Positions 32,313 to 63,827 of a DNA stretch of 64,000 bases are shown here, in pieces. Both the position numbers and the translations under genes were made by a program. The notes beneath the pieces were generated by a model, which worked only from the letters and a program-made list of their open reading frames with translations, had not been told where the DNA came from and searched no databases. Origin of the DNA: a bacterium (GTDB taxonomy: Bacteria > UBA8248 > JACPRG01 > G963555815). The stretch is from assembly GCA_965261595.1 (NCBI GenBank), contig CBDHDG010000006.1, positions 1,312,001-1,376,000 on the forward strand, written 5' to 3'. Each line of letters starts with the position of its first letter. Position 1 is the first letter of the stretch.

Positions 32313-32367
32313 TGGAGTTACCCCGTTTCAGTGGACACCTTCAGACTGTGGGGAGGAGGTGTTCAGA

Positions 32368-33718: not shown

Positions 33719-33723
33719 CTCCA

Positions 33724-41429: not shown

Positions 41430-41480
41430 AATGTTGAGTGTAACCTCAACATACCTCCAATTCAAATCGCGACGATCAAT

Positions 41481-42285: not shown

Positions 42286-43212
42286 CTACGCCACCGCCTT
42301 GAACCGCTCTAAGCGAATCGCAAGCCGGTCCCGATCTGGCCGGTCCTTAACCCGGTTTGGCAGATGGAGGGCTTCGCCATTTAGCTGCTTGAGGGCTTCG
42401 AGCATCGGGCCGTCGTTCTGGTCGAGCAATCGGTCCGAGACATGCAATCGATAGTCGGGATCGATGCCGATCAAATGGGCATCGAAGGCGGCATGATGGC
42501 TTTTAGAGAGCGGCAGGCCGTTCGGGACGATAGGCTGTCCCAGCCTTTCATTCTTGTCGGAAATGATATGCGCTGCGTCGAGCAGCCGCTGTTCGGGCAA
42601 TCCGGACAAGGCGCAACGCCCGTCATAGGCCGCAATAACGGCTTCGCGGAATGACGCCTGATGAAGCCGCTGCTTTACCGAACGCAACGCATATCGCCGT
42701 TCCAGAGCGTTTTCCGGCGGGACCAATACATCTTGCTCCGGCACGCCGAACGCGACACACGCCTTCAGGGCATTGGCGTCCCATCCTGAAATGAATGCCG
42801 GGAGCATAGCCTGGTAGCGGCCAGGCGCGATGCCGAGAAAATAAACTACCGGTATCCCGTTCTCAAATGCCTCGCGCAGCCAGCGATTGTCCGCTGCCTC
42901 CGGATTCCGCCCCATGAAGGCATAATCCACCGTCTCGTCGCCCTCAAAGATCTGGCGGTGTACGTCTCGCTGATCGTCGTACCAGACCCGCGCGCCGGGT
43001 CGCGGAAATACGGTCTTGATGGAGAGCAGATACCGCATCTGTCGCGGCTTGAAGATTCCCCGCTGGGGATTGACGAGCGGGATGCGCTCGCCTTCGAAAA
43101 CAAACCCCGGTTTAAATTCGTCGGCGGTCAAATGGTCATGCACCTCACCCAGCCTTCGAACATGCTCGAAAGCCGCCATCCGCATCAGGGTGTCCCGTTC
43201 GTTGTCGCTCAT
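42286..43212 (-). CDS. HNH endonuclease with N-terminal putative recognition domain
   Basis: RLHQASFREAVIAAYDGRCALSG, LDAAHI, NGLPLSKSHHAAFD. Confidence 0.9.
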   Translation of the reverse strand: MSDNERDTLMRMAAFEHVRRLGEVHDHLTADEFKPGFVFEGERIPLVNPQRGIFKPRQMRYLLSIKTVFPRPGARVWYDDQRDVHRQIFEGDETVDYAFMGRNPEAADNRWLREAFENGIPVVYFLGIAPGRYQAMLPAFISGWDANALKACVAFGVPEQDVLVPPENALERRYALRSVKQRLHQASFREAVIAAYDGRCALSGLPEQRLLDAAHIISDKNERLGQPIVPNGLPLSKSHHAAFDAHLIGIDPDYRLHVSDRLLDQNDGPMLEALKQLNGEALHLPNRVKDRPDRDRLAIRLERFKAVA

Positions 43213-43388
43213 CGAGACATCCCTCACCCCCTGAAACAATGCTCATTGTGCCAGGTCAGCACCTTGTTGCATGGATCATCGCGACGAAGTCTTATCATTG
43301 GCTTCATTCACCGCTGGGGCCAGTTTAACTGCCACATAAGTTCAACGCCGCCCGACGGCGCAAGTTTGATAAGGCGCGGTACCGGGTG

Positions 43389-43470: not shown

Positions 43471-45150
43471 CCGGAATTTCCCATATCCAATCCGGACAGG
43501 CCTGTACCGACCCCTCGTTGCTGTTTAAGTCAATTAGACCCCTCTCTCCCGGACCTGTCCATCCCATTTCAGGTGCCTGAAACCCTAATCGGAGCGTTAT
43601 CCACCATTGAAAATCATGCCACCCCTCCGGGTAGGCGAGCCTTCCCAGCAGGTCATCTGGAAGGGACAGAACATTCACCATTTTGTCCTCGGGTGGACTG
43701 CGCTGAGAGCGGTTAGACAGGTACGGGCCGCAATCGGTTGATCCGGTCCAGGATGAGAGCGAACACCTCCCTGGATACGGCTACCTCGGCCAACTGAAAG
43801 ATGATGTGCCGGACATGGCGCACAATCCGGCCGCCCATTTTGATGCGCTTGACCTGGAGGCTTCGCAGCGACCAGTGCTTGAGCTCCCTAGGCAAGGCTA
43901 GCCTCCGCAGGAAATTGCCCAGGTTGTACCCCAGGACGAAGAGAAGGAGCCGCACCTGGTTGCACACGAACCGGTGACAGGAAAGGCGTGTCCAGTTCAG
44001 GGCCTACTTGCCTTCCTTGATCCATGGCTCGGCTGTGCCTCGCTGGTTGTAGAAGTGCACGACCCCCTCGGGTCGAGCCGTCAGGTTCGTGACAATGAAT
44101 CCGACGCGAGGGAAGCGTTCGCCTGAGTGCCATTCCACCTTCGCCACCACCCCTCGGGGGTGGTCCCAGCTTCCAGCCTGATACAGGAAGTCGTGATAGA
44201 AGATGATGGGTCTCTTGGGCGGGCGACCGACCGGGCGAGTCAGCAGGAAGTCGATCCGTGGGTAGAGCACTTCGTTCGCAGGGAGCCGGATGGCGTAGAG
44301 GAAGCCACGCTCTTCCAAGTACTCATAGACCTCGGGGCTCGTAAAGGCGGCATCGGCCCGAAAGGAACGGCGAACATCAGCGTGCTCATAGCGGGCCGTG
44401 ATGGGCTCCAACAACTTTCGCCACCCATCGGCGCTGTGAACGTTGCCCGGACGCAACTCCGCCCCCTCGCAGTCCCCAAACTGGTTGAAGCAGAATAAGG
44501 GATGGTAGCAGAGGGAACCGAAGTGACCGTTATAGGCAGTCCCTTCCTGCTGTCCGTGCACCCGGCTTTCCGAGCTATCCATGTCCAGGATGACCCGCTG
44601 ATGCGGCGTGCGGCTCATGGCCCGCTCTACCCATTCCGCGTTCAGTTGCCTCAGCCTACTCAGGTTCTCCTCGTTGCAGAGAACTTCAGTCTCGAACCGG
44701 CTCCATGTGTTGGTACTGGCCGCCTGCTTCTCAAGTGCCCGCCGGCCAACTACGGCTTGCATAGCAGGGTCTCTCGCCAATCGCTCGGCATCGTTGGTGT
44801 CCTCGTACCCGGCCAGGCGACTATAGACTGACTGGCGCAATAGCGGCACCAACTCATGCTGGACGTTCCGGCCATGACGGATCTCTTGCAAGTGGGCTGG
44901 CGCTCTCACCGTCAAACCCAGCGCATCATCCAACTCCCGGCAGGCCAGCAATCCTGCATCTGAAGTGATTCTGGCTCCGTGAAAGTCAAGCCTCAGCCTA
45001 CGGTTAAAATGGACCCTCAATGCCGCCTTTTTCGCTTCACCCATAGGGTTCCCCCGCGAGAACGTGGCAGGGGGAAGCCAATACGCTGATTTTACATGAG
45101 AAAGCGCCTTTCGGTCTGTCGAATCTTATGACACAAATGGGAAATGCGGG
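43471..45150 (-). mobile_element. IS1380-family element; transposase 43713-45044 has an in-frame TAG at 44004
   Basis: ITSDAGL, LDMDSS, CYHPL, FRADAAF, FYNQRGTAE. IRs CCGGAATTTCCCAT / CCCGCATTTCCCAT. Confidence 0.92.
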
Positions 45151-46239
45151 ATGAGACACCGGGGCCGTTTTTTTGAATGTCTCCAGGACCTGGGCGGGCG
45201 TCAGGTAGTCCAGGGCCCAGTGGGGTCGAATGTGGTTATAGACTTGCTCCCACTCGCGAAGGCGGACGTTGAGCGAGGCCACCGTCCAGGGGAGTTCGTA
45301 CACCTCGTAGAACTCCTCCGTATGGGTCCTGTTGGCCCGCTCCACACGGCCGTTGAACTTGGGCGAGCGGGGCGGCAGCTCAAAGAGCAAAATCTCCCGC
45401 TCCGCGCACGCCGCCTCGAACACCGCCCGGAACTCCGAGCCTCCGTCTACCTGAATCGCCCGCAGCGGGAACGGAGCGCGCGCCTGAAGGGTGTCCAAAA
45501 ACCGCCGGGCGTAAAGGGCCGTGGCGCACGAGAAGACCTCCATCACGTCCCAGCGCGAGACCATGTCCCGGGCGGTGAATTGCTTCAACCTCACCCCGGC
45601 AAGGGGGGAAAGCTCGAGGGTGTCCACCTGGACCAGGTCTCCGGGACAATCGGACACATAGCCCTTGGGCTTGCGCGTGGCGTAAGGCCGCCGCGCCCGA
45701 CGCCGCTTCGCGCTCACCACCTTGCCCCTCGGCTCGACCAGCAGTCGCCGGCGCTTGAGATCGGCCAGGATGCGGCCCACCGTCGAGACCGAGGTCACCA
45801 ACCCCTCGCGTTGAAGCAGGACCGCCAGCTTGGCCTCTCCCCACCGGGGGTACTGCTCCCGAAGCTGCAAGACCGCCTTCACCAGCTCTGGCGACCACGT
45901 GGGCTGCCTCACCCGGCGCGGCCGGCGCGGCCGGCGCGTGCGCTCCTGCAGGGTCGGCAGGTCTCGGGGGTCAAACCGCTTCCGCCAGCGGTACAGCGTG
46001 GCCCGGCTCAGACCAAATGTGCTGCAAACCAATTTCGCATTCCCGCTCTCCCGCCAAAGGCTCAGGGCGCGAAGACGAGCCCGGCCCTCGGGGGACAACT
46101 CCACCGCCCCGTAGCCTCCTGCGCGCAGGGAGGCTACGGGGCCACCCAAACACTTGCATCCAGGGACCTCCTCTCTCGTGGCCCCTGGCACTCTACTCCC
46201 TAACCAAGGAGATGTCTCACATCTATCTGAACCTATACA
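45151..46239 (-). mobile_element. IS481-like element, right end cut by IS1380
   Basis: Left end TGTATAGGTTCAGATAGATGTGAGACA. VQVDT, IQVDGGSEF, NGRVERANRT. Confidence 0.9.
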
Positions 46240-46433
46240 CTGTCGGCCAGATCGTGCCTCCTATCGGTTCTCAAGCCGCCCGCGATGGCATCACCAAGGC
46301 TTATGGAGAACTGGATCGTTGGATGGGCGCACAAGGCCGTCTCTTCGTCTTTACGGCGGGCTTTTGATCGCCGGGCTAAAGGAGATTTGAGGAACGACGG
46401 TGAAAGCCGGAGGGATCGGGACAGGCCGCCTTA

Positions 46434-46661
46434 TCACACCGGCCGCGCGTCCGGCAGGTACTTTTCCAGGCCGATGCGGATGGCGTCCACCGGACAGACG
46501 TCCTCACAATTCAGGCAGACGATGCAGGGGGCCTCTTCCAGGACCAGGAGCCGTTTTTCCTTCTGGGCGAATCCCAGACAGTCCACCGGGCAAGCTAGCA
46601 CGCACAGGGCGCAATCCACGCAGCTCGGAAGGACGCTGATCCGGACGGATTTAATCGGCAT
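46434..46661 (-). CDS. 2x[4Fe-4S] ferredoxin
   Basis: CVDCALCVLACP, CIVCLNCEDVCP. Confidence 0.93.
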   Translation of the reverse strand: MPIKSVRISVLPSCVDCALCVLACPVDCLGFAQKEKRLLVLEEAPCIVCLNCEDVCPVDAIRIGLEKYLPDARPV

Positions 46662-48423
46662 GGGCGCTCCGAATCGGCACGGGAAGGGAGACCCGGGTGA
46701 CGTCTACCTCTCTTTTGAAAGGCTCTTGACCCCGGAGGATGACGTCGTGGCAGATCCAGTTTTCCTGGTCGGTATTCGGATAATCCGTTCGAAAATGGCA
46801 TCCTCGGCTCTCCGTTCGAAAACAGGCCGAGCGGACGACCACCTCGCCCACTTCAACCAGTGTCTCGGCCTCCAACGCGGCTTTGACCTCGAACGGCGTC
46901 CGGGCGTGTAAACTCGGAAGGCGATCGCGCTTGATCGCTTGCAAATCCTCAAGGGAAGCCTCCAGGCGTTCTCCGGACCGGAGCGGCCCGGCGTTCTCCC
47001 ACATGGTTCTCTGAAGTTCCGAGCGGATCCCGGCGGGATCGCCCTCTTCGCTTGGCGGCCGGTCCCACCCCCGGATATTCGCCAGACGCTCTTGCACGGC
47101 TTCCCTGTCCCAGTCCGCATCGGACACGAGGAGAGGGTTGTCGCGGGCGCGTTCGGCGGCGGCCCTTCCCGCCCGCGATCCGAAGACCAGGCAGTCCGAG
47201 AAGGCGTTCCCCCCCCTGCGGCGGGCGCCGTGGACGGGCGCGGCCGATTCACCGGCGGCGTAGAGTCCCGGCAGATTGGTCTCGCACCACGGTTTGATCC
47301 CGATCCCCCCCAGGTGAGTGATGGCCCCGGGAGAGATCCGGAGCGTACGGTTCTTCCAGTCGAACCCCCTCAACAGGCAGCGCAGGTCGTATCTGCCTGG
47401 AAGGTCGGATTCCCAAAGCTCTTCGGGAACACCCCGAAGATCGAGCCAGATGGAGTCCCCGTCGCCCCTCCCTTCAAAGATTTCGATGGCAATGGCCCGG
47501 GAGATGATCTCGCGCACGTCGGTGGAGAGCTCCCCATATCGCTTCTGGAAATGGACGGTGGGCTCCCCCGTTGGAGTCAGAGCACTATCGAGAAACGCCT
47601 CGCCTTTCCCGTTCCGATAGACGGCGTGAAGCCTGGCGGTGCAGGGAAGCAGATACCACATCGGCAGTCCGGGCTCCATCATGGTGTGAGGAGAGAACAT
47701 GGCGAAGGACATATCCACCAACTCTGCCCCGGCCCGGTAGGCGGCGGCGTACCCGTCTCCCGTCGTGACATTGGTGGTGTAGTTGATCCGGTAAAGCTCG
47801 CCCGCGCCTCCGGTCGCCAGGATGGTCGAAGCGGCCCGGCAGACGATGAAATCCCCCTGGTAGATGCGATAGAGCAGCGCGCCCGCCACCCCGTCTTCGC
47901 CTGTCAGGAGGTCGACCAGGACGCAACCTGGCATCATATGGACGCCCAGGCGCTTGCATTCTTCGGCCATCCCTCGGGTGACAACCTGTCCGCCCCGGGA
48001 AGGGTTTGCGTCAACTTTCGTCGATCCGTCGGCCAGCTCGATGGACTCGGGAAGACCGTACGTGCACAAGGCCTCGTAGTGGGGGATGTTGAATTCCTGG
48101 AGCTCGAGGATCCGCCCGGGCGCTTCCAGGGCCATGATCTCCACCAGGGTCTGGTCTGCCAGATACTCCCCGTATTCCACGGTGTCCCGGAAGTGCTCGT
48201 CCGGTGTGTCGTATTGCTTTTCGACGCTCGTATCCAGATTCGGGAGCGCCGCCTTGAAGCCTCCCCCTGCCAGGGCCGTGTTGTTGTTGACGCCGATGAG
48301 GGCCTTGTCGATGAGAAGGACTTTTTGCCCGAACCGGCGGGCCTCGATGGCCGCCCGCAGGCCGGCCAGCCCGGTCCCGATGATCAGGACGTCCGTCTCG
48401 CGTTGAACCCAGGTTTTCTTCAT
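46651..48423 (-). CDS. FAD-dependent oxidoreductase, SdhA/FrdA/NadB/AprA family
   Basis: IIGTGLAGL, ATGGAG, TGDG, GLYAAGE, HGARRRGGN, RTESRGCHFR. Confidence 0.92.
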   Translation of the reverse strand: MKKTWVQRETDVLIIGTGLAGLRAAIEARRFGQKVLLIDKALIGVNNNTALAGGGFKAALPNLDTSVEKQYDTPDEHFRDTVEYGEYLADQTLVEIMALEAPGRILELQEFNIPHYEALCTYGLPESIELADGSTKVDANPSRGGQVVTRGMAEECKRLGVHMMPGCVLVDLLTGEDGVAGALLYRIYQGDFIVCRAASTILATGGAGELYRINYTTNVTTGDGYAAAYRAGAELVDMSFAMFSPHTMMEPGLPMWYLLPCTARLHAVYRNGKGEAFLDSALTPTGEPTVHFQKRYGELSTDVREIISRAIAIEIFEGRGDGDSIWLDLRGVPEELWESDLPGRYDLRCLLRGFDWKNRTLRISPGAITHLGGIGIKPWCETNLPGLYAAGESAAPVHGARRRGGNAFSDCLVFGSRAGRAAAERARDNPLLVSDADWDREAVQERLANIRGWDRPPSEEGDPAGIRSELQRTMWENAGPLRSGERLEASLEDLQAIKRDRLPSLHARTPFEVKAALEAETLVEVGEVVVRSACFRTESRGCHFRTDYPNTDQENWICHDVILRGQEPFKREVDVTRVSLPVPIRSAHAD

Positions 48424-48540
48424 GCCTTTATCAAGCCTTTGTCATGCCGGGTGATTCGTGAGTGCATTATTTGGAGTTTGCAGCGGGAGGCGCTTTTTGA
48501 AAGGCGCCCCCCCGCACCCCTCAGAACACATGTCAAGCAT

Positions 48541-49125
48541 TCATTCCTCCCGTGAATGGCTCTCCTTCAGGGCTCGCTGGAACCGGTAGCGGCATTCGAG
48601 CTTGTCCTCGATCATCGAGGGAACGGGGTCGCCGGTGGTGACCTTGAGATCGACCAGAACATGACTTGTCGTTCCGAGCAGTCCGGGAAGCACCTCCTTC
48701 CACGCCTGGAGGTCGGCTACTTCGCGCGTATCGCCGATTCCGGCTTCCCGAGCGATGGCATCGAACCGAATATTTTCGGGCCCGGGAAGCGGGAACCCCC
48801 CGGATGATTCGTAAGTCCCGTTGTTGAACACCAAATGGAGGAGATTCGATGGATTCTGTTGCCCCGCCGTCGCCAGCGATCCCAGATTCATCAGGAGTGC
48901 GCCGTCTCCATCCAGGACAATCACCTTGCGGTCCGGATTTGACAGGCTGAGTCCCAGGCCGATGGAAGAGGCGAGGCCCATGCCTCCGGAGTAGTAATTC
49001 AGATCGCGGGGCCGCAGATGATGCCACTCGTCGATCAGCCCTCCCACGGTGGCGACCACCAATTCGTCGGTCACGCGCTCGGCCAGGGCTGCCAGGCAAT
49101 CCGTTCGTTTCATCCCGCGACTCAT
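48541..49125 (-). CDS. TPP-dependent decarboxylase beta subunit (ComE-like)
   Basis: GMGLASSIGLG, DGDGALLMNLG...NNG.YES. Confidence 0.9.
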   Translation of the reverse strand: MSRGMKRTDCLAALAERVTDELVVATVGGLIDEWHHLRPRDLNYYSGGMGLASSIGLGLSLSNPDRKVIVLDGDGALLMNLGSLATAGQQNPSNLLHLVFNNGTYESSGGFPLPGPENIRFDAIAREAGIGDTREVADLQAWKEVLPGLLGTTSHVLVDLKVTTGDPVPSMIEDKLECRYRFQRALKESHSREE

Positions 49126-49631
49126 TCGATCAGCGCTTCCTGCCCCAGCAGCACGGCCACGGGCTGTTTGCCGAGCATCGCCCGCTCCCGGGCCGTCTCG
49201 ATGCGGTCCGCCTCTCCCGGCCGGTACACCTCGTATATCGGGATCCGCAGGGCTTCCAGGACCGGGCGGGTGACCTCTCCCTCCAGCAGATGGTAGTCGC
49301 GGTTGTCCGCAAGCCCGGGTCCCCCCCGGTAACTGACCAGCATCAGAAGGGGAATCCGGTGCTTCAGGGGCAGGGTTGCCAGCGCGTTGGCCGAGGCCAG
49401 AAAGCCCGTATTCTGAATCAACAGGGCTGCGCCCTCGCCCCCGAGTTCCAACCCCGCGCAAACCCCGATGCCTTCATCTTCTCTGGCAACGGGAACATCG
49501 ATGAATTCGGGGTCCTCCTTCAAGAGTCGCAAAAGCGGGACGAGCCATGTTTCCGGCAGGCCCACGATGTATTTGACCCCCGCTTTCCGCAAGGATTCGG
49601 CAATGCGGGCGGGGCCGGATTGCCGAATCAT
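49122..49631 (-). CDS. TPP-dependent decarboxylase alpha subunit (ComD-like)
   Basis: GLPET, REDEGIGVCAG, IQNTG, PLLMLVSYRG. Confidence 0.9.
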   Translation of the reverse strand: MIRQSGPARIAESLRKAGVKYIVGLPETWLVPLLRLLKEDPEFIDVPVAREDEGIGVCAGLELGGEGAALLIQNTGFLASANALATLPLKHRIPLLMLVSYRGGPGLADNRDYHLLEGEVTRPVLEALRIPIYEVYRPGEADRIETARERAMLGKQPVAVLLGQEALIE

Positions 49632-50464
49632 GGATTCCCGCCGCGCGCGGCTTGGGGCCTTCCGAAGAGGAGCGTTTTCCCGAGCTGGGGACGGCCGGCG
49701 GTTTGAGTGGTCTCGAGTTGTCCCCGAATGTGAGTGACGAGACGGCCGAACCGGACGTCCGTCTCGATGCCAATCTCCCGCGGCCGCGGCAAGTCCACGG
49801 TGACGACATCCCGAATCGTTCCCGGGCGGGCGGAAAACACCACCACCCGATCAGAAAGGAAGACCGCCTCGGAAATGCTGTGGGTCACGAAGAGGACGGT
49901 CTTCCCGCTTTGCATCCAGATGTCCTGGAGCTCCAGATGCATCTGCTCCCGGGTCAAGGCGTCCAACGCCCCGAACGGCTCGTCCATGAGAAGGAGCGGG
50001 GGGTCATGGATGAGGGCCCGGCAGATCGCGGTCCGTTGCTGCATGCCTCCGGAAAGCTGGTAGGGATACTTGTCCTCAAAGCCTTCCAGTCCCACCAAGT
50101 CCAGGAGCGCGCGGGCGCGGCGGGTGTAATCCCTCTTGTCGAGCTTCCGGACCTCGACCTGAAGCAGGATGTTTCGAAGGATCGTTCTCCAGCGGAGCAG
50201 GACCGGGTTTTGGAAGACAAACCCCACATCCTGGGTGGGCCCCCGGACGGACTGTCCCCGGATCCGCACCTCTCCCCCGGTCGGGTGCAGGAGTCCGGCG
50301 GTGATTTTCAACAGGGTGGTCTTCCCGCAGCCGCTCGGGCCGACGAAAGAGACAAACTCTCCGTCCAACGCCTGAAAGTCGATGTCCTTCAGGGCGCAGA
50401 GGGTCTCTCCCTCGTCTACATAGTCCATTCGCAATCCTGCGAACTCAATGGTTGAATCCATCAT
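49628..50464 (-). CDS. ABC transporter ATP-binding protein (TauB/SsuB type)
   Basis: GPSGCGKT, LSGGMQQR, LMDEPFGALDALTRE. Confidence 0.95.
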   Translation of the reverse strand: MMDSTIEFAGLRMDYVDEGETLCALKDIDFQALDGEFVSFVGPSGCGKTTLLKITAGLLHPTGGEVRIRGQSVRGPTQDVGFVFQNPVLLRWRTILRNILLQVEVRKLDKRDYTRRARALLDLVGLEGFEDKYPYQLSGGMQQRTAICRALIHDPPLLLMDEPFGALDALTREQMHLELQDIWMQSGKTVLFVTHSISEAVFLSDRVVVFSARPGTIRDVVTVDLPRPREIGIETDVRFGRLVTHIRGQLETTQTAGRPQLGKTLLFGRPQAARGGNP

Positions 50465-50582
50465 CCCTTTTCCCGAGACTGCCCCAAACCGGCCTTCCCG
50501 GCTTTCAAGCGTTCAGAAAAAGATCTAGGGAGAGGAGGGATCGGCCCTCCTCTCCCTTCGCCCGATCGTGACCGGGCCGCCC

Positions 50583-51587
50583 TTAGGGAATAAAGGCGTT
50601 GCTGAAGTAGTTGTTGGGCGGCATGGTCTTCTTGATGAGCTTGTTCTTCTCGAGAACATTCTGGGTCCTGGCCCAGTCGGCATCGGCCTGCCAGCCCAGG
50701 GGCTTGCCTTTCGTGGCTTCACTCACCAGGAGATTGAAGGTCCACCGGAGCTCCTTGCCCAAGACCGCCCGCTTCTTGTGAGGAAAGCGCTCTTTCACAT
50801 AATCCGCGGACTCATCGGGATGGGCCTTGGAATACACGATCCCTTTTTTGACGGCCCGCAGGAAACGGCGGATGAGCCTGGGATTCCCTTTCTCGGTCGC
50901 GGTGTTGATGATAATGCCGTTGGCCACCACATTCATTCCCCAGTCGCCCAAATGCATCGCGCTCACCTTCGCCCCCTTCCCTTCCAGGCTGGGGACCTCG
51001 GTGACGCTGTAACCGATCATCCCGATCACCTTCCCGGCGAGCAGGGCGCGGGATTTTCCGGACCGTCCCAGCGCGGCCAGCCCGACCTGGCAGGGATTGA
51101 TGTTATTGGTCTTAAGGAATGCCGCGAAAAGCGCAGTTCCCGAGCCCTTTCCGCTTGTGCTCACCGTCTTCCCCAAGAGGTCTTTCGGAGATCTGACGTT
51201 CGACTTTTTCAATGACACGATGGCCAAGGGGCTTTTCTGCATGATCCCGAAGACGGATTTTACGGGGATTCCGCGGGTGACCCCTTGGAGGGTGCTCACG
51301 CCGGCGGCGAAGGCGAACGTATCGTTCTTCGCGCCCATGAGTTTGACCACCGTGCTTGATCCCGTGCCCTCTCCGATCTTCACGGACATTTCTTCGGCCT
51401 TGTAAAAGCCCTTTTTTTCTCCGATGAAGAAGACGGCATGGGTCCCGTAGATCTTCCAGTCCAGCCTCAGGGAAACGTCATCGGCCGCCACCGACGGTGC
51501 GACCCATCCGGTGGTGATCGCAAAGACCCCCGCGAGGAGCGAAAACCCCATTTTGAATAACCACTGCCGGCATGCTCTTGCTCTCAT
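50583..51587 (-). CDS. ABC substrate-binding protein (NMT1/THI5/SsuA-like)
   Basis: Signal peptide. LRLDW, KGFY, GTGSS, PKDLLGKT. Confidence 0.9.
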   Translation of the reverse strand: MRARACRQWLFKMGFSLLAGVFAITTGWVAPSVAADDVSLRLDWKIYGTHAVFFIGEKKGFYKAEEMSVKIGEGTGSSTVVKLMGAKNDTFAFAAGVSTLQGVTRGIPVKSVFGIMQKSPLAIVSLKKSNVRSPKDLLGKTVSTSGKGSGTALFAAFLKTNNINPCQVGLAALGRSGKSRALLAGKVIGMIGYSVTEVPSLEGKGAKVSAMHLGDWGMNVVANGIIINTATEKGNPRLIRRFLRAVKKGIVYSKAHPDESADYVKERFPHKKRAVLGKELRWTFNLLVSEATKGKPLGWQADADWARTQNVLEKNKLIKKTMPPNNYFSNAFIP

Positions 51588-51631
51588 CTTCTCTCCCTCC
51601 CGTTTGAAAACTTCCTTTTGGAAAACAACCC

Positions 51632-52495
51632 TCACGCAGTATTCTCCGCACCCTCTTTCGAGACACGGACCCCTTGCTGCTTCTCTCCCCGGACGACCAC
51701 ATGCCAGGGCAGCAGCCACTTCTCAAGCTGGATCACCACGAAAAACAGGCCCCCCCCCAGAATCATCAAGAGGATCAACGTGGAGAACAGAAGCTCGGTG
51801 TCGAGCTCGGTGTTCGCGTATTGCAGAAGATAACCGAGACCGCGATCGGAGCCGATGAATTCTCCTACGATGGCTCCGATGAGCGAGAGGGTCACGGCCA
51901 CTTTTAGGCCCCCGAAAAAATACGGGAGCGCGTTTGGAATCCGAATCTTGGAGAAAACCTGAAAATCACTTGGGGACATAATCCGGATCAGGTCCAATTC
52001 GTCGTTCTCGACCGATTTCAAGCCCAGGGCGGTCTGAATCACAATGGGGAAGAAGGCGATGATGAAGCTGATCAGAACTTTCGGGAGGATCCCCCACCCG
52101 AACCAGATAATGAGCAATGGACCGATGGCAATCTTGGGGAAACATTGCGAGAACACCAGAAGGGGCATGATGGCCCGTTCGAGGGTCTGGGACCAGACCA
52201 ACATCATGGCGAAAGGAACGCCGATCACGATGCTCAACGCCAATCCCCCAATGGTCGCGTTGACGGTCGCCACACTGTGGCGCATGAGCAGATGAATCTT
52301 CTCCACCAGGGTGATAAAGACCGATTCCGGAGGCGGCAGAATATAATCCGGGACCTTGAAGCCGTGGACGATGAGCGCCCAGAGACCGATCGCCACGATG
52401 ACGGCGGCCGCCGGGTACAGGACCCGGATGAAGGCGGGAGGTTGTACAGCCCGGATCTGGACCGGTTTTCCCCGGGCGGAGTCCTTTTCGTTCAC
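51632..52495 (-). CDS. ABC permease (TauC/SsuC type)
   Basis: YILPPP, PKIAIGPLLIIWFG, GAIVGEFIGSDRGLG. GTGA overlap. Confidence 0.93.
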   Translation of the reverse strand: MNEKDSARGKPVQIRAVQPPAFIRVLYPAAAVIVAIGLWALIVHGFKVPDYILPPPESVFITLVEKIHLLMRHSVATVNATIGGLALSIVIGVPFAMMLVWSQTLERAIMPLLVFSQCFPKIAIGPLLIIWFGWGILPKVLISFIIAFFPIVIQTALGLKSVENDELDLIRIMSPSDFQVFSKIRIPNALPYFFGGLKVAVTLSLIGAIVGEFIGSDRGLGYLLQYANTELDTELLFSTLILLMILGGGLFFVVIQLEKWLLPWHVVVRGEKQQGVRVSKEGAENTA

Positions 52496-52782
52496 GGGTG
52501 GGCCTCCCCCGTCTCCAGATAGACGTGGAGACAATCCGGTTTGCAGACCTCTTCGCAGCTGTAGCAAAGGATGCAGGCATCGAGTCGCAGGATGTAGGCC
52601 ACCTTGACGTCGGTATCCAGCTCCAGGCAGTCCGTTGGGCAGGCCAATACGCAGAGGTCGCAGCCCGTGCACGCCTCCTTATCGATTTCGAGGGAAAGCC
52701 CCGGAGAGGGGATGAACGGAGGCGGCTCCCACGCCGACCGGTCCGGTTTTCGTTTGAGACTGGCGACACCTGTCGATCTCAT
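52492..52782 (-). CDS. 2x[4Fe-4S] ferredoxin
   Basis: CTGCDLCVLACP, CILCYSCEEVCKP. Confidence 0.93.
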   Translation of the reverse strand: MRSTGVASLKRKPDRSAWEPPPFIPSPGLSLEIDKEACTGCDLCVLACPTDCLELDTDVKVAYILRLDACILCYSCEEVCKPDCLHVYLETGEAHP

Positions 52783-54581
52783 TCCACCTGCACCTCTTCC
52801 TTTTCCCAGATCAGCTCATCCTCGCTCCCCATGCTCTTGGGACGGCCGGCCTGGGCCGCGGGATCCGAAAAAGAACGATGCCGTTCGGTCGGGAGCCGCA
52901 CCCGGGTGACCGGGACGTCGATTTCGGACCTTTCCATCCCGTCGGCCGTCTTTAGGATACAAAAATTCTTCAGGAACCGGTCGTTGTCGATCTCCGGACA
53001 ATCCTCCCGATAATGTGTTCCACGGCTTTCGGCCCGGGCGAGTGCGGACCGGGCGGTGATCTCGTGCGAAAGGAGCATGTATTCCGCCTCCAGGGCGGTG
53101 CGAAGCTTCCGGGCTCCGGGGGCGAACAGTTTCGGCATCCGGTTCTTCCGGACGTCTTCCAGCGCCTCCAGGCAGCGCGTCAATCCTTCCTCCGAGCGGA
53201 TGACGCCGACCCCCTCCCAGCCGATCCGCTTCAAGTCCCGGGCCAGTTCGTCCGGATCCCCTTCCGGTGTCGGCTTCCGCTCCAAAAGCTCCGCGATGCG
53301 GCTGAGGGATCCCTGCAACCGCTCCTCGGGGTAGGACCGCGTGGAGATGCCGGCCGCGCGCTGCGCCGCCTCACGGCCCGCCCGGGCCCCGAATACGAGG
53401 CAGTCGGTGAGCGCGTTTCCTCCGAGCCGTCTGGCCCCGTGAATCAGGCCCGCCGCCTCTCCGGCGGCATACAGACCGGGGACCGTGCTCTCACAGACAT
53501 CATTGATGTGGATGCCCCCGAGATTCGTGATGGCGCCGGGAATCACCCGCATCATTTTCTCCTGGATCGGAAAATCCCTGAGAATGGCGTCCCGGTTATG
53601 TCTGCCCGGAATGTCCTTGTCCCAATACTCCGGGGGAACGTGGCGGCAATCCAGAAACACGGCACCATCCTCGTCGCGGCCTTCGTGGATCTCTGTGGCG
53701 ATGGCCAGGGAGATGGTCTCGCGGACATCAGGCGGAAGCGCCCCATAGCGGACGGGGAAGGGATCATCCATCGTTCCGACGACCTTCAGGTATTTCGGCA
53801 GGAAGGCCTCGCCCTCGGAGTTGACCAGCTTCCCATAAAACCTGGCGAAGCAGGGGAGGACGTACCACATCGGGAGACCGGGTTCGTCCAGGATGTACGG
53901 GTCGAACATGACGAACTCCATCCCGATCAGCTCCGCTCCCGCTTCATAGGCCATGGCGTAGCCGTCGCCGACAATGGCCAGGGAGACGTTGTTGCGGGCA
54001 AAGGAGGCCCCCGCGCCCCCGGTGGTCAGGATGACCGCCCCCGCCCGGATCTCGATAAACTTCTCGTTGAAAAAGCTGAAGAACAGCCCTCCGACGACCT
54101 CGCCCTCCTCCACCAAAAGCTCGATGAGGATGGTATTGACGCGGGTCTTCACCCCCTGGGACTTGATGTTGGAAGCGAAGGCCTTCGTCACGTCGTAGCC
54201 TCCGTGCTCCGAAGTGCCCTGGGTGCAGAGAGACATGAAGTTCTTGATCCCGACGTCCTCCAGCTCCAGGACACGGGCCGGGGCCTCGATGGTCAGGGCC
54301 TCGACCAGGGGCTGCTCGCTCATGTAGTCGCCGTAGTAGATGGTGTCCTGAAAATGTCCTTCGGGCGTCAGGTATTGTTTCTCGATCAGGGTGTCCATCC
54401 CCGGGAGACAGGTCTTGAAGCCTCCCCCCGCGAAGGCGCTGTTGCCGGTGAGGCCGATCAGCCCCTTGTCTACCAGAAGAACATTCGCCCCGAACCGGTG
54501 GGCCTCGGCCGCGGCGCGCAGCCCCGCAAGACCCGCTCCCACGACCAGCACGTCCACCGAATGACTGAAGTGCGGGATCAT
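52779..54581 (-). CDS. Second SdhA/AprA-family FAD oxidoreductase (paralog)
   Basis: VVGAGLAGL, GLYAAGE, HGARRLGGNAL, RAESRGTHYR. Confidence 0.92.
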   Translation of the reverse strand: MIPHFSHSVDVLVVGAGLAGLRAAAEAHRFGANVLLVDKGLIGLTGNSAFAGGGFKTCLPGMDTLIEKQYLTPEGHFQDTIYYGDYMSEQPLVEALTIEAPARVLELEDVGIKNFMSLCTQGTSEHGGYDVTKAFASNIKSQGVKTRVNTILIELLVEEGEVVGGLFFSFFNEKFIEIRAGAVILTTGGAGASFARNNVSLAIVGDGYAMAYEAGAELIGMEFVMFDPYILDEPGLPMWYVLPCFARFYGKLVNSEGEAFLPKYLKVVGTMDDPFPVRYGALPPDVRETISLAIATEIHEGRDEDGAVFLDCRHVPPEYWDKDIPGRHNRDAILRDFPIQEKMMRVIPGAITNLGGIHINDVCESTVPGLYAAGEAAGLIHGARRLGGNALTDCLVFGARAGREAAQRAAGISTRSYPEERLQGSLSRIAELLERKPTPEGDPDELARDLKRIGWEGVGVIRSEEGLTRCLEALEDVRKNRMPKLFAPGARKLRTALEAEYMLLSHEITARSALARAESRGTHYREDCPEIDNDRFLKNFCILKTADGMERSEIDVPVTRVRLPTERHRSFSDPAAQAGRPKSMGSEDELIWEKEEVQVE

Positions 54582-55297
54582 GAGACCGTCTCCGCCAAAC
54601 CCGCTTCCGGCGCGGCGCCCTGACTCTTTTCTCCCCAGAAGGCGCCCAGGAGCCGCTGGCGAGTCAACTGGAGATGGCGCTCCATGACCCCCCGGGCCTG
54701 TTCCGCGTCCCGGCGGCGCAAGGCTTCGATCAATTCGACGTGGTCTCCGCCGGTTTCCTCGAGCTGGGGTAGGGAATAGCTGATGAAGATCACCCTCAGG
54801 AGGTCTTCGAGGACTTTCGTGATGGCCCGGGCCATGGACCGGTTGCCGGAGGCGGCCGCCAATTTCCGATGAAACAGGATGTTGGCTCCTGCATACGCCT
54901 CCAGCTCGTTCTGTCCACCCAGGCGGTTCCCGGCCGGCGGCTGCGGAAGGATGAGCCCCTCCAATTCATCGAGCTCGGCCGCCGATATCCGACTTGCGGC
55001 CAACTCGATGGAGACGCATTCCAGAATCTCGCGGAGCTCGAGATTTTCCACCACTTCCTGAGGATCAACGGGCGCCACGAGATATCCTTTGCGCGGAAGC
55101 AGCCTGATGAAGCGGTCCTTCACCAATTCCGAGAGGGCCTCGCGGACAGGGGTCTTGCTTACGCCGAAGGTACGGGCCAGATCCTTTTCCTGGAGAAATT
55201 CTCCGGGAGGGAGGACTCCGGTGATGAGATCGTTTTTCAGGCTTGCGTAGATCCGGTCCTTGATGGATGCCTTGTTTTCCGAGATTTCCGGCAGCAT
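54578..55297 (-). CDS. GntR/FCD transcriptional regulator
   Basis: LARTFGVSKTPVREAL, FH, H..L. Confidence 0.95.
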   Translation of the reverse strand: MLPEISENKASIKDRIYASLKNDLITGVLPPGEFLQEKDLARTFGVSKTPVREALSELVKDRFIRLLPRKGYLVAPVDPQEVVENLELREILECVSIELAASRISAAELDELEGLILPQPPAGNRLGGQNELEAYAGANILFHRKLAAASGNRSMARAITKVLEDLLRVIFISYSLPQLEETGGDHVELIEALRRRDAEQARGVMERHLQLTRQRLLGAFWGEKSQGAAPEAGLAETVS

Positions 55298-55350
55298 TCA
55301 GACACCCCTGGATTGATGTCGAGGACCAGATACTCTACTGATATTTCTTG

Positions 55351-55379
55351 ACGATATCAAAAGTATTTCTTTTTGTCAA
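55351..55379 (-). promoter_or_regulatory. Sigma70-type promoter of gntR operon
   Basis: TTGACA (55379-74), 17-bp spacer, TATCGT (55356-51). Overlapping GATA..TATTTC repeats may be operators. Confidence 0.7.
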
Positions 55380-55728
55380 CCATCATTTTCCAATTTTTAG
55401 AGGTCGCCGAATCATCCTTCAGAATGAGGGGGTGGAAGGCCCTTTGGCTCTTTCGATTCAGCCGATCTCCTCGATTTACCCAGGATTCTGAAAATGCGCG
55501 TACGAGCGGACCGAGCCTGTCGCGAGTCCTTTCGGAAGTCTCGGACTCGCAAAATGGTAGTGCCTTGCTCGAGGTTTCATCCTCCCGGAAACCATGCCGG
55601 GGTGCATGAAACGTCAGCGTTGATCCGGCCAGGAGCTTTGTGTTAGCCTTCTCTCAAAGACAAAATCCCGAAATTTGTCTTTGGGGCCGCATCATTCCGG
55701 AAAGCGGCGCCGGGTGAAATTCCCCCGG

Positions 55729-55801
55729 GGCGCGATCGAGCAGGTCGTCCTGGCGGAAGAATTGGGGTTCGAATCGGTCTTCATCAGCGAATGCCATCTG
55801 A
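55729..55801 (+). pseudogene. LLM flavin-dependent oxidoreductase N-terminal remnant
   Basis: AIEQVVLAEELGFESVFISECH. Confidence 0.6.
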
Positions 55802-55811
55802 GGAAGGAGAT

Positions 55812-57176
55812 ATGGCTGACACAACCTTGATCAAGGGCCGCTTTGTTCTGACGGTGGACCCCGAGGACCGAGTGATTGAGCGTGGAGGCGTGGTGATTCA
55901 GGGGGATCGGATCGCGGCGGTTGGAAGCGCGGAAGAGCTGAAGAAGGAATACCCCGGCTGCGAGGTTGTGGACGGCGCCCGTCACGCCGTGATTCCCGGG
56001 CTCGTCAACCTCCACATGCACTCCGGGCTCCTCCGAGGAACCGCGGAGGACCTGCCGGTTTTCGAGTGGCTCTACAAGTACATCGATCCCATGCACAAGG
56101 CGCTGAACGAGGAGGAAGCGGCGGCGGCGTCCATGCTCTCCTATGCCGAGAACCTGAAGGCCGGCGCCACGTGTGTCCTGGACATGTACCGGTATATGCA
56201 CCGGGCGGCGGCGGCGGCCGAGCGCCTCGGCCTCCGGGCGAACCTCGCCCCGTACGTGGCCGATCGGCCCGGTTACGAGTATTTCGAGAGCCCGGAAGAC
56301 AACCGGCGCCTGATCGAGAGCCACCATGGCTGCGCGGACGGCCGGGTCCGGGTCTGGGTCGGCCTGGAGCATTTGACCTATTCCACGGACGCCGCCTTCA
56401 AGAAGGCGGTGGAATGGGCCGACAAATATGGCGTGGGAATCCACATTCACGCGGATGAATCATTGAGCATGGCCCAGACCGTTGAGCGCAATGAGGGCAA
56501 ACGGGAAGTGGAAATCCTTCACGACAAGGGCCTGTTGGGGGAGCGCACCATCCTTGCGCACTGTGTCTGGCTGAGCCAGCCGGAGATGGCTCTGGTGGCC
56601 GAGTCGGGCACCCGCGTGGCCCACTGTCCCGTCTCGAACCTCAAGCTCGCCTCCGGTGTCGCTCCGGTTCCGGAGATGCATCGTCAGGGCATCATCGTGG
56701 GAATCGGCAGCGACGGGGTGAAGGAGAACAACAGCCTCGAGCTCTGGGATGAGATGAAGGTGGCGTCGATCGTGCAGAAGGGATACCGGATGGACCCCAC
56801 CCTGGCGACGGCCCCGACTGTCTTCCGAATGGCCACCATCGACGGAGCGCGGGCCCTTGGGCTGGGGGAGGAGATCGGCTCCCTGGAGCCGGGCAAGAAG
56901 GCGGACCTCGTCCTGGTGAACCTCCATACGCTGCACATGGCGCCGGTGCTGGGCGGCGAGTTCTACAACGTGACGCATAACCTGGTGTACGCCACCCAGG
57001 GCAGCGACGTGGAACACGTCATGGTCGATGGGAAATGGGTCGTCCGCGATGGCGGACTTGTCAACGGGGACGAGGGCGAGATCATTGATCGGGCGACGGC
57101 CGCCGCCGTGTCTCTGCTGGAGCGGCGGAAGCAGTTCGTCCCGCATGACATCAAGAGCCCTTTGGAGATTTTCTGA
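55812..57176 (+). CDS. Amidohydrolase (MTA/SAH deaminase-like)
   Basis: PGLVNLHMH, HIHADE, AHCVW, HCPVSNLKLASG, GSDG, GKKADLV. Confidence 0.93.
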   Translation: MADTTLIKGRFVLTVDPEDRVIERGGVVIQGDRIAAVGSAEELKKEYPGCEVVDGARHAVIPGLVNLHMHSGLLRGTAEDLPVFEWLYKYIDPMHKALNEEEAAAASMLSYAENLKAGATCVLDMYRYMHRAAAAAERLGLRANLAPYVADRPGYEYFESPEDNRRLIESHHGCADGRVRVWVGLEHLTYSTDAAFKKAVEWADKYGVGIHIHADESLSMAQTVERNEGKREVEILHDKGLLGERTILAHCVWLSQPEMALVAESGTRVAHCPVSNLKLASGVAPVPEMHRQGIIVGIGSDGVKENNSLELWDEMKVASIVQKGYRMDPTLATAPTVFRMATIDGARALGLGEEIGSLEPGKKADLVLVNLHTLHMAPVLGGEFYNVTHNLVYATQGSDVEHVMVDGKWVVRDGGLVNGDEGEIIDRATAAAVSLLERRKQFVPHDIKSPLEIF

Positions 57177-57220
57177 GGCTTGGCGGCGAGGAGCGACACC
57201 TCGCGTGCGCGCCCTCGGCC

Positions 57221-57445
57221 TTACGACTCTTCCCGCCGGAAGGGGAGGGTGAAGGCCGCGGGAAATTCGGCTCTGCGGGAAACACCGACCATCGCGGCGA
57301 TCCTCACCACATACGGCAGGACCTGGAACAGCTGATAGGGAACCGGAGTGTTCATCCCCTGAAGACGGAGCTGGAGCGCGTCGGTTGCGCCGAACAGCAA
57401 GGCGATCGCGAAGGCCGCCCAGGGTTTCCACTTGCTAAACAGGAC
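57221..57445 (-). pseudogene. Nucleoside/sugar ABC permease C-terminal remnant cut by IS3
   Basis: FSKWKP...LLFGATDALQLRLQ...LPYVV. Confidence 0.8.
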
Positions 57446-58857
57446 TGGAGTTACCCCGTTTCAGTGGACAGTTTAGGGCTGTCGTCCCCAGCCCTGAGGT
57501 GGGCGACAGCCGGTGGACGTAAAGTCTTCTCCCGATCCGATAGATAGGGTGCCCCCGGGGGGTATGTCTTGACCTTTGGCTCGCTGCTCCGGGAAGCACC
57601 GGGGACGGCTCGAGCCGGACGATGAGCGTTGCGCACTGCACGTGGCGTTTCCTTCGCCGCGGACCGCTCGAAGTCGTTGGGGCTGAGGTAACCCAGGGCC
57701 GAATGACGACGGCGTGGGTTGTACCAGCCTTCGATGAATTGGAAGATCGCCAGGCGCGCTTCGGCCTGGGTACGGAACGAGCGCCGGTCGATGAGCTCGC
57801 ACTCCAGCGTGGCAAAGAAGCTCTCGGCCATGGCGTTGTCGAAGCAATCCCCGGCCGACCCGGTCGAGGGAACCACCCCCATCTCCCGGCACCGCTTGCC
57901 GAAGGCGAGCGAAGTGTACTGTGATCCCCTGTCGGAGTGATGCACGACCCCGTCGGGGCGGCGCTGTCCCAACGCCATGTTCAGCGCCCCGAGCACCAGT
58001 TCGGTGCGAAGATGGTGGGTCATGGGACCATCCCACCACCCGGCGGCTGAACACGTCGAGCACGATGGCCAGGTACACGAACCCCGTCCAGGTCGGCACG
58101 TAGGTCACGTCGGCCACCCAAAGCCGATCCGGCGCATCGGCCTGGAACTGGCGTTCGACCCGGTCCGGGACCACACAATGGCTCTGGTCCACGCGCGTAG
58201 TGCGCATGCCTCGGCGTCGGCTCACCCCGGCCAACCCTGCCTCGCGCATCAGCCGAGCCACCCGTTTGCGGCTCACCCGGCAGCCGCCGGCCATCAGCTC
58301 GGCATGGACCCGAGGCGCCCCGTAGGTGCCACCAGATACCTCGTGGATGGCCCGGATCGTGCCACGCAACGCCTCCTCGCGCTTCGCACGATTCGAACGC
58401 CCACGGCTTCGCCACGCGTAGTATCCGCTGGGGGAGACACCCAGCCGACGGCACATCGTGGCCACCCGATGGCAGGCCTGATTCGCCTTCACGAGCTCGA
58501 AGACTTCGCCCGGACCGAGCCGGTCTCCCGAGCGAACCAAGCCGTAGCTTTTGCCAGTATCTCGCGTTCTTCGCGAAGCTGACGATTGTCCCGACGAAGC
58601 CGCCGTAGCTCCTCGAGCTCTGAGCTTGTCAGACCGTCCTCACGACGGCCCTCGTCGCGGTCGGCCTGGCGCACCCAGTTGCGAATCGCCGAAGCGGAAC
58701 ACTCGAACTCCCGGGCCAGCTCCCCGGGCGTACGGCCCGAGCGAACCAGCTCAACCATCTGGCGCCGGTATTCCGGCGCGTAGGGTGAATGAGTTTTCGG
58801 CATCTGAACACCTCCTCCCCACAGTCTGAAGGTGTCCACAAAAACGGGTCAACTCCA
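57446..58857 (-). mobile_element. IS3-family element, copy 2 (orfB frameshift near 58026)
   Basis: Near-identical to 32313-33723, IRs at both ends, orfA 58489-58803. Confidence 0.95.
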
Positions 58858-58974
58858 TGGCCGGAGTTGCGGGCTTGGCGGGCTCGATCACCGGATTCTG
58901 GTTTGGTTCAAGGCGTCTTTCGCAGGCGCCGGGACAGCCGGTTCCGCCAGCTGGGGGCGCGGATGCGGGTTGAA

Positions 58975-63720: not shown

Positions 63721-63827
63721 TTCGCACCTCGCATGGAGAATGAACCCGCCTTTCGCACGAAATTCCAACTCCCCTGGCATGGTTTAACAGGCGGGTCCGC
63801 TGGTCCGCAAACTTGGCCGTCAGGGAA

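Follow-up and report, generated by a model that had tools for sequence, protein, structure and literature searches.

In the succinate dehydrogenase flavoprotein SdhA, H45 carries the covalently bound flavin adenine dinucleotide (FAD), H242 and H354 bind substrate carboxylates, and R286 and R399 are the catalytic arginines; the related TfrA is of the non-covalent flavin type, and AprAB consists of a soluble flavoprotein and a subunit with two [4Fe-4S] clusters. Two-subunit thiamine pyrophosphate (TPP) decarboxylases were earlier known, according to PMC12746152, only from rhizocticin and coenzyme M biosynthesis, and by that account three such activities are in print. LumK/LumL (20 and 23 kDa, 1:1) decarboxylates a quinoxaline carboxylic acid in riboflavin catabolism after amidase steps (PMC12746152), and ComDE is used catabolically after the oxidation of sulfolactate, a 2-hydroxy acid (PMC11382572). 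Here, these systems are compared with a ten-gene operon that encodes two flavoproteins (FP1 and FP2), which sequence comparison supports as a clade of their own, so far without a name, within the Sdh/Frd/NadB superfamily, two ferredoxins (Fd1 and Fd2), and a two-subunit TPP enzyme. The operon lies within a bacterial DNA stretch of 64,000 nucleotides (contig CBDHDG010000006.1, positions 1,312,001 to 1,376,000; assembly GCA_965261595.1), hereafter referred to as the window, in which all coordinates below are counted.

The ten genes are co-oriented on the minus strand (46434–55297), with a promoter-like site extending the region to 55379, and the expected Pfam domains were found in all ten proteins. 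In order of transcription, the features are as follows (ABC, ATP-binding cassette).

55351–55379, minus strand: TG-extended promoter-like site TTGACA-17-TATCGT, located 54 nt ahead of the start of GntR
55328–55370, no strand assigned: AT-rich imperfect palindrome with 17-nt arms (71% complementary), overlapping the –10 element
54578–55297, minus strand: GntR/FCD regulator, opening the operon (Pfam scores over the gathering thresholds, at 61.9 bits for GntR and 81.6 bits for FCD)
52779–54581, minus strand: flavoprotein FP2, 600 aa (FAD_binding_2 and Succ_DH_flav_C; TfrA model 312 bits vs. a cut-off of 718)
52492–52782, minus strand: ferredoxin Fd2, 96 aa (Fer4 families; two CxxCxxCxxxC motifs; 4-nt overlap with FP2)
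51632–52495, minus strand: ABC permease of the NitT/TauT type (BPD_transp_1 99 bits; GTGA start/stop overlap with Fd2)
50583–51587, minus strand: NMT1/THI5-like periplasmic binding protein (NMT1 151 bits; signal-peptide-like N-terminus)
50527–50557, minus strand: hairpin of 13 bp, rich in G+C and followed by a T tail, located after the binding-protein gene and before the ATPase gene
49628–50464, minus strand: ABC ATPase (ABC_tran 112.7 bits)
49122–49631, minus strand: TPP enzyme alpha subunit with the PYR domain, ComD/RhiE-like (TPP_enzyme_N 28.5 bits)
48541–49125, minus strand: TPP enzyme beta subunit with the PP domain, ComE/RhiF-like (TPP_enzyme_C 58 bits; ATGA overlap with alpha)
46651–48423, minus strand: flavoprotein FP1, 590 aa (FAD_binding_2 and Succ_DH_flav_C; TfrA model 332.5 bits vs. 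718)
46434–46661, minus strand: ferredoxin Fd1, 75 aa (Fer4 families; motifs for two [4Fe-4S] clusters; 11-nt overlap with FP1)

The original prediction for this locus, made from the sequence alone, had described ten co-oriented and mostly overlapping genes without a membrane anchor subunit, and this description holds. All ten genes are present; overlaps occur at six of their nine junctions (4 nt, of the ATGA/GTGA type, at five and 11 nt at one), and the other three are gaps of 44, 118, and 117 nt. The permease is the only product with several membrane-helix-like windows (six), while single ones occur at the N-terminus of the binding protein and, over its Cys-rich motif, in Fd1. Within the operon region, the promoter-like site counted as support sits upstream of the regulator only; three such sites were found in the region vs. 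1.6 ± 1.3 in shuffled sequences, so that its position alone is suggestive. This arrangement supports a regulator-led, co-transcribed uptake and catabolism operon, in which the palindrome is a candidate GntR operator. The hairpin at 50527–50557 is a candidate attenuator or stabiliser that is notable only in size and place, the number of terminator-like structures being equal to the shuffle mean (10 vs. 10.0). By eye, a further G+C-rich hairpin-like sequence, lacking a T tail, was seen within the 117 nt that separate the TPP beta gene from FP1 (48487–48513, minus strand) and may be an RNA processing or stabilising element. An Rfam scan of the window revealed no riboswitch or other RNA family, nor was a tRNA detected.

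Flavoprotein active site and clade

FP1 and FP2 are 46% identical over 585 residues, and both match FAD_binding_2 and Succ_DH_flav_C above the gathering score with a full-length architecture. Neither reached any curated NCBIfam cut-off: the best model, TfrA (NF004900), gave 332.5 and 312 bits for FP1 and FP2, respectively (cut-off 718), and the scores were 298 and 256 bits with sdhA_frdA_Gneg (cut-off 567.3), 277 and 277 bits with PRK07803 (cut-off 819), and 237.2 and 192.7 bits with the nadB model TIGR00551 (cut-off 452.75). The closest solved structure is E. coli SdhA (1nek_A, 7e-60), whereas AprA and the alpha subunit of archaeal 3′-phosphoadenosine 5′-phosphosulfate (PAPS) reductase (2fja, 1jnr, 8a8o) are remote in sequence (1e-13 and 2.5e-16, respectively).

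The alignment with 1nek bore out the earlier observation that the covalent-FAD His and the His residues of the QFHPT and HYTMGG motifs have been replaced. SdhA H45 aligns to N48, with Asn in both flavoproteins, H242 to S244 in FP1 and to Asp in FP2, and H354 to I368. The equivalents of R286 and R399 are retained as R304 (inside "DVRE") and R402, both invariant in the two clade alignments, and the HGA-R-GGN stretch is retained as well. That both Arg residues are kept while both substrate His residues are lost argues for a substrate with one carboxylate and a different distal group. The SdhA capping-domain stretch TEGxRGEGG, which includes T254 and E255, corresponds to EPGLPMWY.LPC.AR in a weak part of the alignment, and FP1 carries an insert of 18 residues (about 126–143) that is seen in the FP1 lineage and not in FP2.

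An exhaustive phmmer search among 1.84 billion representatives returned 16066 proteins at E ≤ 0.001, of which 1678 also fell at or below 1e-30. From the best 150 representatives, those of full length (145) were aligned with FP1 and FP2 (147 rows). His is present at the covalent-FAD position in only three of these rows, its absence being common among the neighbours, while at the H354-equivalent position 120 rows have His, 11 have Ile or Met, and 16 have another residue. It is thus the loss of the H354-equivalent, rather than the missing covalent His, that marks the clade at the sequence level. The motif that the original prediction had called private to the two flavoproteins is indeed present in both, but its EPGLP part recurs in relatives beyond the clade (e.g., P0377 and P0391), and across the wider clade the motif reads EPGLPMMDRHECEAEF.

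In the FastTree phylogeny of the 147 rows, a 15-row group (support 100) comprises all 11 Ile/Met rows and four rows with Leu or Asp, and an inner eight-row group (support 98) contains FP1 and FP2. In a quick IQ-TREE analysis (LG+G4, 54 rows), FP1, FP2, and 28 relatives fall on one side of a branch of length 0.76 with a Shimodaira–Hasegawa-like approximate likelihood ratio test (SH-aLRT) support of 100, the other side being formed by 24 proteins from ordinary Sdh/Frd-type loci. These 24 were taken from 30 labelled locus proteins, 26 of which pass an Sdh/Frd cut-off; the four that pass none (L001, L003, L004, and L018) were all included, and six of the 30 were omitted to limit the size of the tree. 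The predicted new flavoenzyme clade is therefore upheld, in that FP1 and FP2 lie outside every named Sdh, Frd, NadB, TfrA, or Apr model and form their own group with full support in the trees.

Six members of the 15-row group (P0368, P0369, P0386, P0397, P0403, and P0438) keep an EP.LP-type motif and Asp at position 244 and lack the R304 and R402 equivalents and the HGA-R stretch; they could form a sister group that is non-catalytic or works differently.

Existing annotation says little about these proteins. At least 120 relatives were found at E ≤ 2.5e-115 in a word-index search, and their names, where given, are "FAD-binding protein" or automatic Sdh/Frd/TfrA labels; the names obtained from Protein Atlas were likewise generic only. 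TfrA was the best model for all 18 clade members of the first alignment, with a best E-value of 2.8e-110 that is still far under the 718-bit cut-off. Among the 67 nearest representatives outside the clade, only two pass any curated cut-off and none reaches that of TfrA, so that hardly any of the sequences close to TfrA have a name. Searches of the open literature (subscription-only papers being outside the scope) turned up neither this type of operon nor the clade.

Compared with SdhA and FrdA, the clade shares the two full-length Pfam domains, the R286 and R399 equivalents, and the HGA-R-GGN stretch, and the iron–sulfur partner is modelled beside the loop that holds the flavin-linking His in those enzymes. 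It differs from them in lacking the covalent-FAD His, in the replacement of both substrate His residues, and in having EPGLPMW...C.AR in place of TEGxRGEGG; moreover, the operon partner is an 8Fe ferredoxin of 75–96 aa instead of a three-cluster SdhB, and no anchor-like protein occurs among the ten. TfrA is the named model with the highest score for both flavoproteins and for each of the 18 clade members aligned, but the scores stay well short of its cut-off and the operon has no TfrB-like partner. AprAB resembles the operon pairs in joining a soluble flavoprotein of the superfamily to a subunit with two [4Fe-4S] clusters in the absence of a membrane anchor, whereas its sequence is remote and the operon has no sat or qmo genes. 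By these comparisons, the flavoproteins are nearest to TfrA and SdhA in sequence and to AprAB in subunit make-up, and are members of neither.

Both flavoproteins have orthologues elsewhere, including P0002 (84% identity), P0007 (74%), and P0008/P0009 (67%) for FP1 and P0023 (96%), P0018 (83%), P0012 (76%), P0016 (71%), and P0021 (68%) for FP2. FP1-type (67–74%) and FP2-type (68–76%) clusters have equal longest-contig sizes in three cases (37200, 37403, and 10981), and a ComE-like protein (58%) also matches the size 37403, other ComE matches (1923 and 2458) counting as chance level. The separate orthologue lineages and the shared contig sizes suggest that the duplication is old and that both copies have been kept together, and the two conserved paralogues in turn suggest two substrates or two enantiomers. 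A scan for related loci with generic patterns matched 593 stretches, and 80 loci were kept, all 29–35% identical and ordinary Sdh/Frd loci. A tblastn search against plasmids gave 357 records, all below 60% identity and without a clade member, the best among those listed being at about 30–33% and mostly sdhA. No flavoprotein–ferredoxin fusion, i.e., no protein longer than 611 aa, was present among the best 150 representatives.

Ferredoxins, decarboxylase, and importer

Fd1 and Fd2 each carry two CxxCxxCxxxC(P) motifs, match only generic Fer4 families, and are 44% identical over 54 aa; the aprB model gave 28.6 bits (cut-off 135.65). Each flavoprotein gene overlaps its own ferredoxin gene, and the AprAB-like make-up noted earlier, with a dedicated partner for two [4Fe-4S] clusters beside each flavoprotein, was borne out. 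Complex modelling supports binding of Fd1 by FP1: ipSAE was 0.90/0.90/0.90 (three of three runs) vs. 0.00 for the best of three controls, the partner had a predicted local distance difference test (pLDDT) value of 89, and at least 98% of the contacts were common to the runs. The ipSAE mark used is reached by 116 of 157 solved complexes and two of 215 mismatched pairs, a calibration that is rough here because our own alignment was used. The modelled contacts involve FP1 residues 40–46 (the loop before N48), 126–143 (the insert), 250–256 (EPGLPMW), and 349–355, and Fd1 residues 18–27 and 44–51. Because EPGLPMW is among them, part of the motif once thought private looks, in the model, like a ferredoxin-docking surface.

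The TPP enzyme pair scored 110.2 bits with sulfopyru_alph (ComD; cut-off 147.95) for alpha, 125.7 bits with ComE (cut-off 221.5) for beta, and 127 (beta) and 67 (alpha) bits with Ppd (cut-off 312.5). The closest structure is RhiEF (9iz3), with alpha matching 9iz3_A at 5.7e-13 and beta matching 9iz3_B at 1.7e-20, and the GDG...NN motif of beta and the conserved Glu of alpha are present in these alignments; the beta start that yields 194 aa agrees with P0121. The pair shares with ComDE and RhiEF, and by description with LumKL, the split into PYR and PP subunits of about 170–195 aa, the overlapping genes, and the TPP motif. Unlike ComDE and Ppd, it falls below the respective cut-offs and is set in an importer operon with flavoproteins. 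By sequence, it is ComDE/RhiEF-like at the family level only, and since LumKL acts on a heterocyclic acid, a best match to ComDE or Ppd does not fix the substrate.

A second ComDE-like pair was observed 13 kb to the right (alpha 63220–63780 and beta 62588–63223, both on the minus strand). It is 38% (alpha) and 35% (beta) identical to the operon pair and scores 115.6 (ComD) and 108.4 (ComE) bits, both below the cut-offs. Directly upstream lies the C-terminus of an NMT1 binding protein (63831–63998, minus strand; 40% identical to that of the operon) that runs off the window. No Xsc-type or other full-length TPP enzyme was seen among the window proteins scanned.

The importer belongs to the NitT/TauT family. 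Its permease best matched SaoP (112 bits, cut-off 295) and TauC (76 bits, cut-off 342), and its ATPase SaoA (232 bits, cut-off 360) and TauB (216 bits, cut-off 357). The binding protein shares the NMT1 fold family with ThiY/THI5 and SsuA/TauA, and the permease and ATPase are likewise of the NitT/TauT type; in contrast to SsuA/TauA, however, it gave only 60.5 bits with SsuA_fam (cut-off 163.5). Its best matches to solved structures were 4nmy (4e-20), THI5 (4e-12), and ThiY (6e-11), and among the eight solved sequences at E ≤ 0.01 none is named SsuA or TauA. ThiY binds formylaminopyrimidine, and the matches to it and to THI5 are only at 1e-11 to 1e-12, scores from which a ligand cannot be read. 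The labels "ComDE-like" and "sulfonate-type ABC" of the original prediction are thus retained at the family level, the latter being valid, as far as sequence goes, for NitT/TauT only, while every curated cut-off was missed. The regulator best matched phnR_burk, a phosphonate-associated GntR model, at 88 bits (cut-off 271.5), and its FCD domain suggests an acid as effector.

Proposed pathway and alternative explanations

Our tentative reading, to which we give slightly less than an even chance, is that the locus serves the breakdown of a small carboxylic acid other than a C4-dicarboxylate, as an operon that is induced by its substrate and comprises import, flavoprotein oxidation, and TPP-dependent decarboxylation. 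For the direction of electron flow, the order of the steps, and the substrate class, we infer the following scheme. The acid would be imported by the NitT/TauT-family ABC system with its NMT1/ThiY-like binding protein and sensed by the GntR/FCD regulator, which would control the importer, both flavoprotein–ferredoxin heterodimers, and the TPP enzyme. FP1–Fd1 and FP2–Fd2 would be soluble heterodimers with non-covalent FAD that retain Sdh/NadB-type chemistry, i.e., hydride transfer to flavin N5 and proton transfer to a conserved Arg. They would dehydrogenate a C2–C3 or C2–N bond of a 2-hydroxy or 2-amino acid, yielding the 2-oxo acid by way of an enol or imine; analogous chemistry is known from succinate dehydrogenase on malate (a side reaction) and from NadB on aspartate. 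The two paralogues might serve two related substrates or two enantiomers. By way of the bound ferredoxin and its two [4Fe-4S] clusters, electrons would pass to an acceptor encoded outside the operon, and the ComDE/RhiEF-type enzyme would then turn the 2-oxo acid into an aldehyde by decarboxylation. Such chemistry would probably vary themes that are already known. A bolder version, possible but on balance doubtful, is that FP1 and FP2 represent a new flavoprotein:ferredoxin dehydrogenase family acting on 2-hydroxy or 2-amino acids with a non-carboxylate distal group (sulfolactate or cysteate, phosphono analogues, or a heteroaryl acid), and feeding a catabolic two-subunit TPP decarboxylase in an undescribed ferredoxin-linked route that recurs in the genome as modules of an NMT1 binding protein and a ComDE-like pair.

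Several points weigh against the catabolic reading. Residue roles were carried to FP1 through one pairwise alignment with SdhA, in which the T254/E255 region aligns poorly, and neither tree includes a proven NadB, AprA, or TfrA. Complex modelling covered FP1–Fd1 only, with Fd1 folded without an alignment, and its score may reflect likeness to solved SdhAB and AprAB complexes. Co-retention of the paralogues elsewhere was judged by equal contig sizes of protein clusters instead of the relatives' DNA. The operon itself has no gene for a ferredoxin acceptor or for an aldehyde-using enzyme, and since its 3′ end abuts an insertion sequence (IS) copy, genes may have been cut off there. No flavoprotein gene accompanies the second ComDE-like module as far as the window extends, which indicates that such a decarboxylase does not always need a flavoprotein. 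Finally, FP1 and FP2 could equally be ferredoxin-driven reductases.

The last point leads to an alternative in which the pairs use ferredoxin to reduce an unsaturated acid of the enoate type, as fumarate and urocanate reductases do, in an anaerobic or microoxic host, with the TPP enzyme acting before or beside them. Superfamily members run in either direction, the partners with two [4Fe-4S] clusters come without a quinone-linked anchor, and the best model match is the reductase TfrA. Direction is unreadable from sequence, but an importer, a GntR/FCD regulator, and a decarboxylase fit the catabolism of a carbon source better, and nothing in the window supplies reduced ferredoxin; we thus give this alternative only a small probability. 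That the flavoproteins are instead an ordinary succinate dehydrogenase/fumarate reductase, L-aspartate oxidase, or adenosine 5′-phosphosulfate (APS) reductase is highly improbable and already disfavoured. The flavoproteins do share the domain architecture of these enzymes and retain both catalytic Arg residues; however, the scores are stated to lie below half of every curated cut-off, both substrate His residues are lost, no SdhB/C/D, NadA, or Sat/Qmo partner is encoded in the operon, and the branch that parts the clade from Sdh/Frd has a support of 100. An APS reductase is further contradicted by the AprA match (1e-13 vs. 7e-60 for SdhA) and by the aprB score (28.6 vs. 135.65).

The remaining alternatives concern the substrate. 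The original prediction had favoured a sulfonated or phosphonated 2-oxo acid, and an explanation along these lines would have a C3 sulfonate or phosphonate (sulfolactate, cysteate, or phospholactate/phosphonoalanine analogues) oxidised to sulfopyruvate or phosphonopyruvate by the flavoproteins in place of SlcD/ComC or an aminotransferase, with the TPP enzyme as a true ComDE or Ppd making sulfo- or phosphonoacetaldehyde. The loss of two carboxylate-binding His residues fits a different distal acid group, the transporter family is that of TauABC and SsuABC, and the best NCBIfam matches are ComD (110.2), ComE (125.7), and Ppd (127) for the TPP subunits, with RhiEF as the closest structure, and a phosphonate-associated GntR for the regulator (88 bits). 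All those model matches lie below their curated cut-offs, though, and ComDE and Ppd were the sole two-subunit TPP models that came up, so that they would be expected as best matches whatever the substrate. The conversion of sulfolactate to sulfopyruvate and its decarboxylation by ComDE form an established catabolic path (PMC11382572), and the Xsc route shares with the proposed scheme the order of 2-hydroxy acid, 2-oxo acid, and ComDE-type decarboxylation; in that source, however, the oxidising enzyme is SlcD, SlcC, or ComC instead of a clade protein, and no Xsc-type or other full-length TPP enzyme was seen among the window proteins scanned. Moreover, THI5/ThiY and 4nmy are matched by the binding protein at E ≤ 0.01, whereas structures of SsuA or TauA are not. 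The second pair nearby (35–38% identical), which has a binding protein of its own, suggests that the enzyme family handles several substrates, and searches of the open literature gave no such flavoprotein in sulfonate or phosphonate pathways. The favoured substrate thus keeps the below-cut-off ComDE/Ppd matches and the NitT/TauT family on its side, and has against it the ThiY-like binding protein, the diverged second pair, the lack of an Xsc-type enzyme among the proteins scanned, and the LumKL precedent; we regard it as unlikely. An N-heterocyclic (pyrimidine- or purine-like) carboxylic acid would account for THI5 and ThiY being the named ligand-binding solved relatives of the binding protein. 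In this alternative, ThiY-like import would be combined with loss of an amino group through a divergently encoded deaminase, reduction or oxidation of C–C or C–N bonds of the ring by the flavoprotein–ferredoxin pairs, and removal of a ring carboxylate by the TPP enzyme in the manner of LumKL. A deaminase-family amidohydrolase is indeed encoded divergently from the regulator, inside the same IS-bounded segment, but it has widespread MtaD-like relatives at 53–57% identity and could be a housekeeping enzyme, and its close relatives lie on contigs of other sizes than the flavoprotein relatives, a single match (17548, P0301/P0070) being at about chance level. No TPP or other riboswitch was found in the window with Rfam, and we know of no flavoprotein of the Sdh/Frd/NadB superfamily that acts on such heterocyclic rings. 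LumK/LumL, as described, provides a precedent on quinoxaline carboxylate (PMC12746152). On balance, we consider a heterocyclic substrate quite unlikely.

Whichever substrate applies, the operon is a tractable entry to an almost unnamed region of the textbook flavoenzyme superfamily Sdh/Frd/NadB/AprA, with two paralogues in which the H354-equivalent is lost and both Arg residues are kept, and with dedicated ferredoxins. The binding protein and regulator beside the flavoproteins allow ligand screening, and the TPP pair adds a member to a rare enzyme type. Knowing the substrate would give a function to a clade that occurs in several phyla, and might bring to light a new route by which organosulfonates, phosphonates, or heterocycles are turned over.

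Genomic surroundings

The following features border the operon and the divergent amidohydrolase gene.

45151–46092, no strand assigned: IS copy bounding the 3′ side of the operon (97–99% identical to 33724–34655, inverted; integrase-core domains)
55791–57176, plus strand: amidohydrolase of the TRZ/ATZ/MtaD type, deaminase family (Amidohydro_1 234.7 bits; divergent from GntR)
57446–58863, no strand assigned: IS3-family copy beyond the amidohydrolase (95–96% identical to 32307–33723, inverted; HTH_21 and rve)

The operon and the amidohydrolase gene exactly fill the interval 46092–57446 between the IS copies, which form two nested inverted pairs. A composite transposon was considered and rejected, as no matching target duplication was seen on the outer sides of the inverted IS3 copies. 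The amidohydrolase, which is possibly linked to the operon, scored 380 bits with the 5′-deoxyadenosine deaminase model (cut-off 522) and matched the MtaD structure 4f0r at 3e-64, and a relative at 82% identity is labelled as being from a Nitrospinota bacterium. Further to the right, an NMT1 gene is split over two overlapping open reading frames (ORFs) in different frames (60450–61142 and 60979–61485, plus strand), 27% and 24% identical to the binding protein of the operon, and is probably a frameshifted pseudogene.

A PADLOC scan of the neighbouring mobile region gave nothing relevant. The left 45 kb of the window is mobile-element DNA with many large ORFs that lack a Pfam match. It contains three consecutive tyrosine recombinase genes (2352–5319) and a block of about 70% G+C (8–24 kb) with a Strawberry-notch-type helicase (1496 aa, 15454–19944) and a protein with an SSB domain (20795–21733). 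These are followed by a YspA/SLOG-domain protein (24725–26659), a large serine recombinase (39633–41465), an HNH nuclease (42286–43239), and a split DDE transposase (43713–45044). A tandem direct repeat of two 171-nt units, 85% identical, is located at 31951–32292, just to the left of the IS3 copy at 32307–33723.

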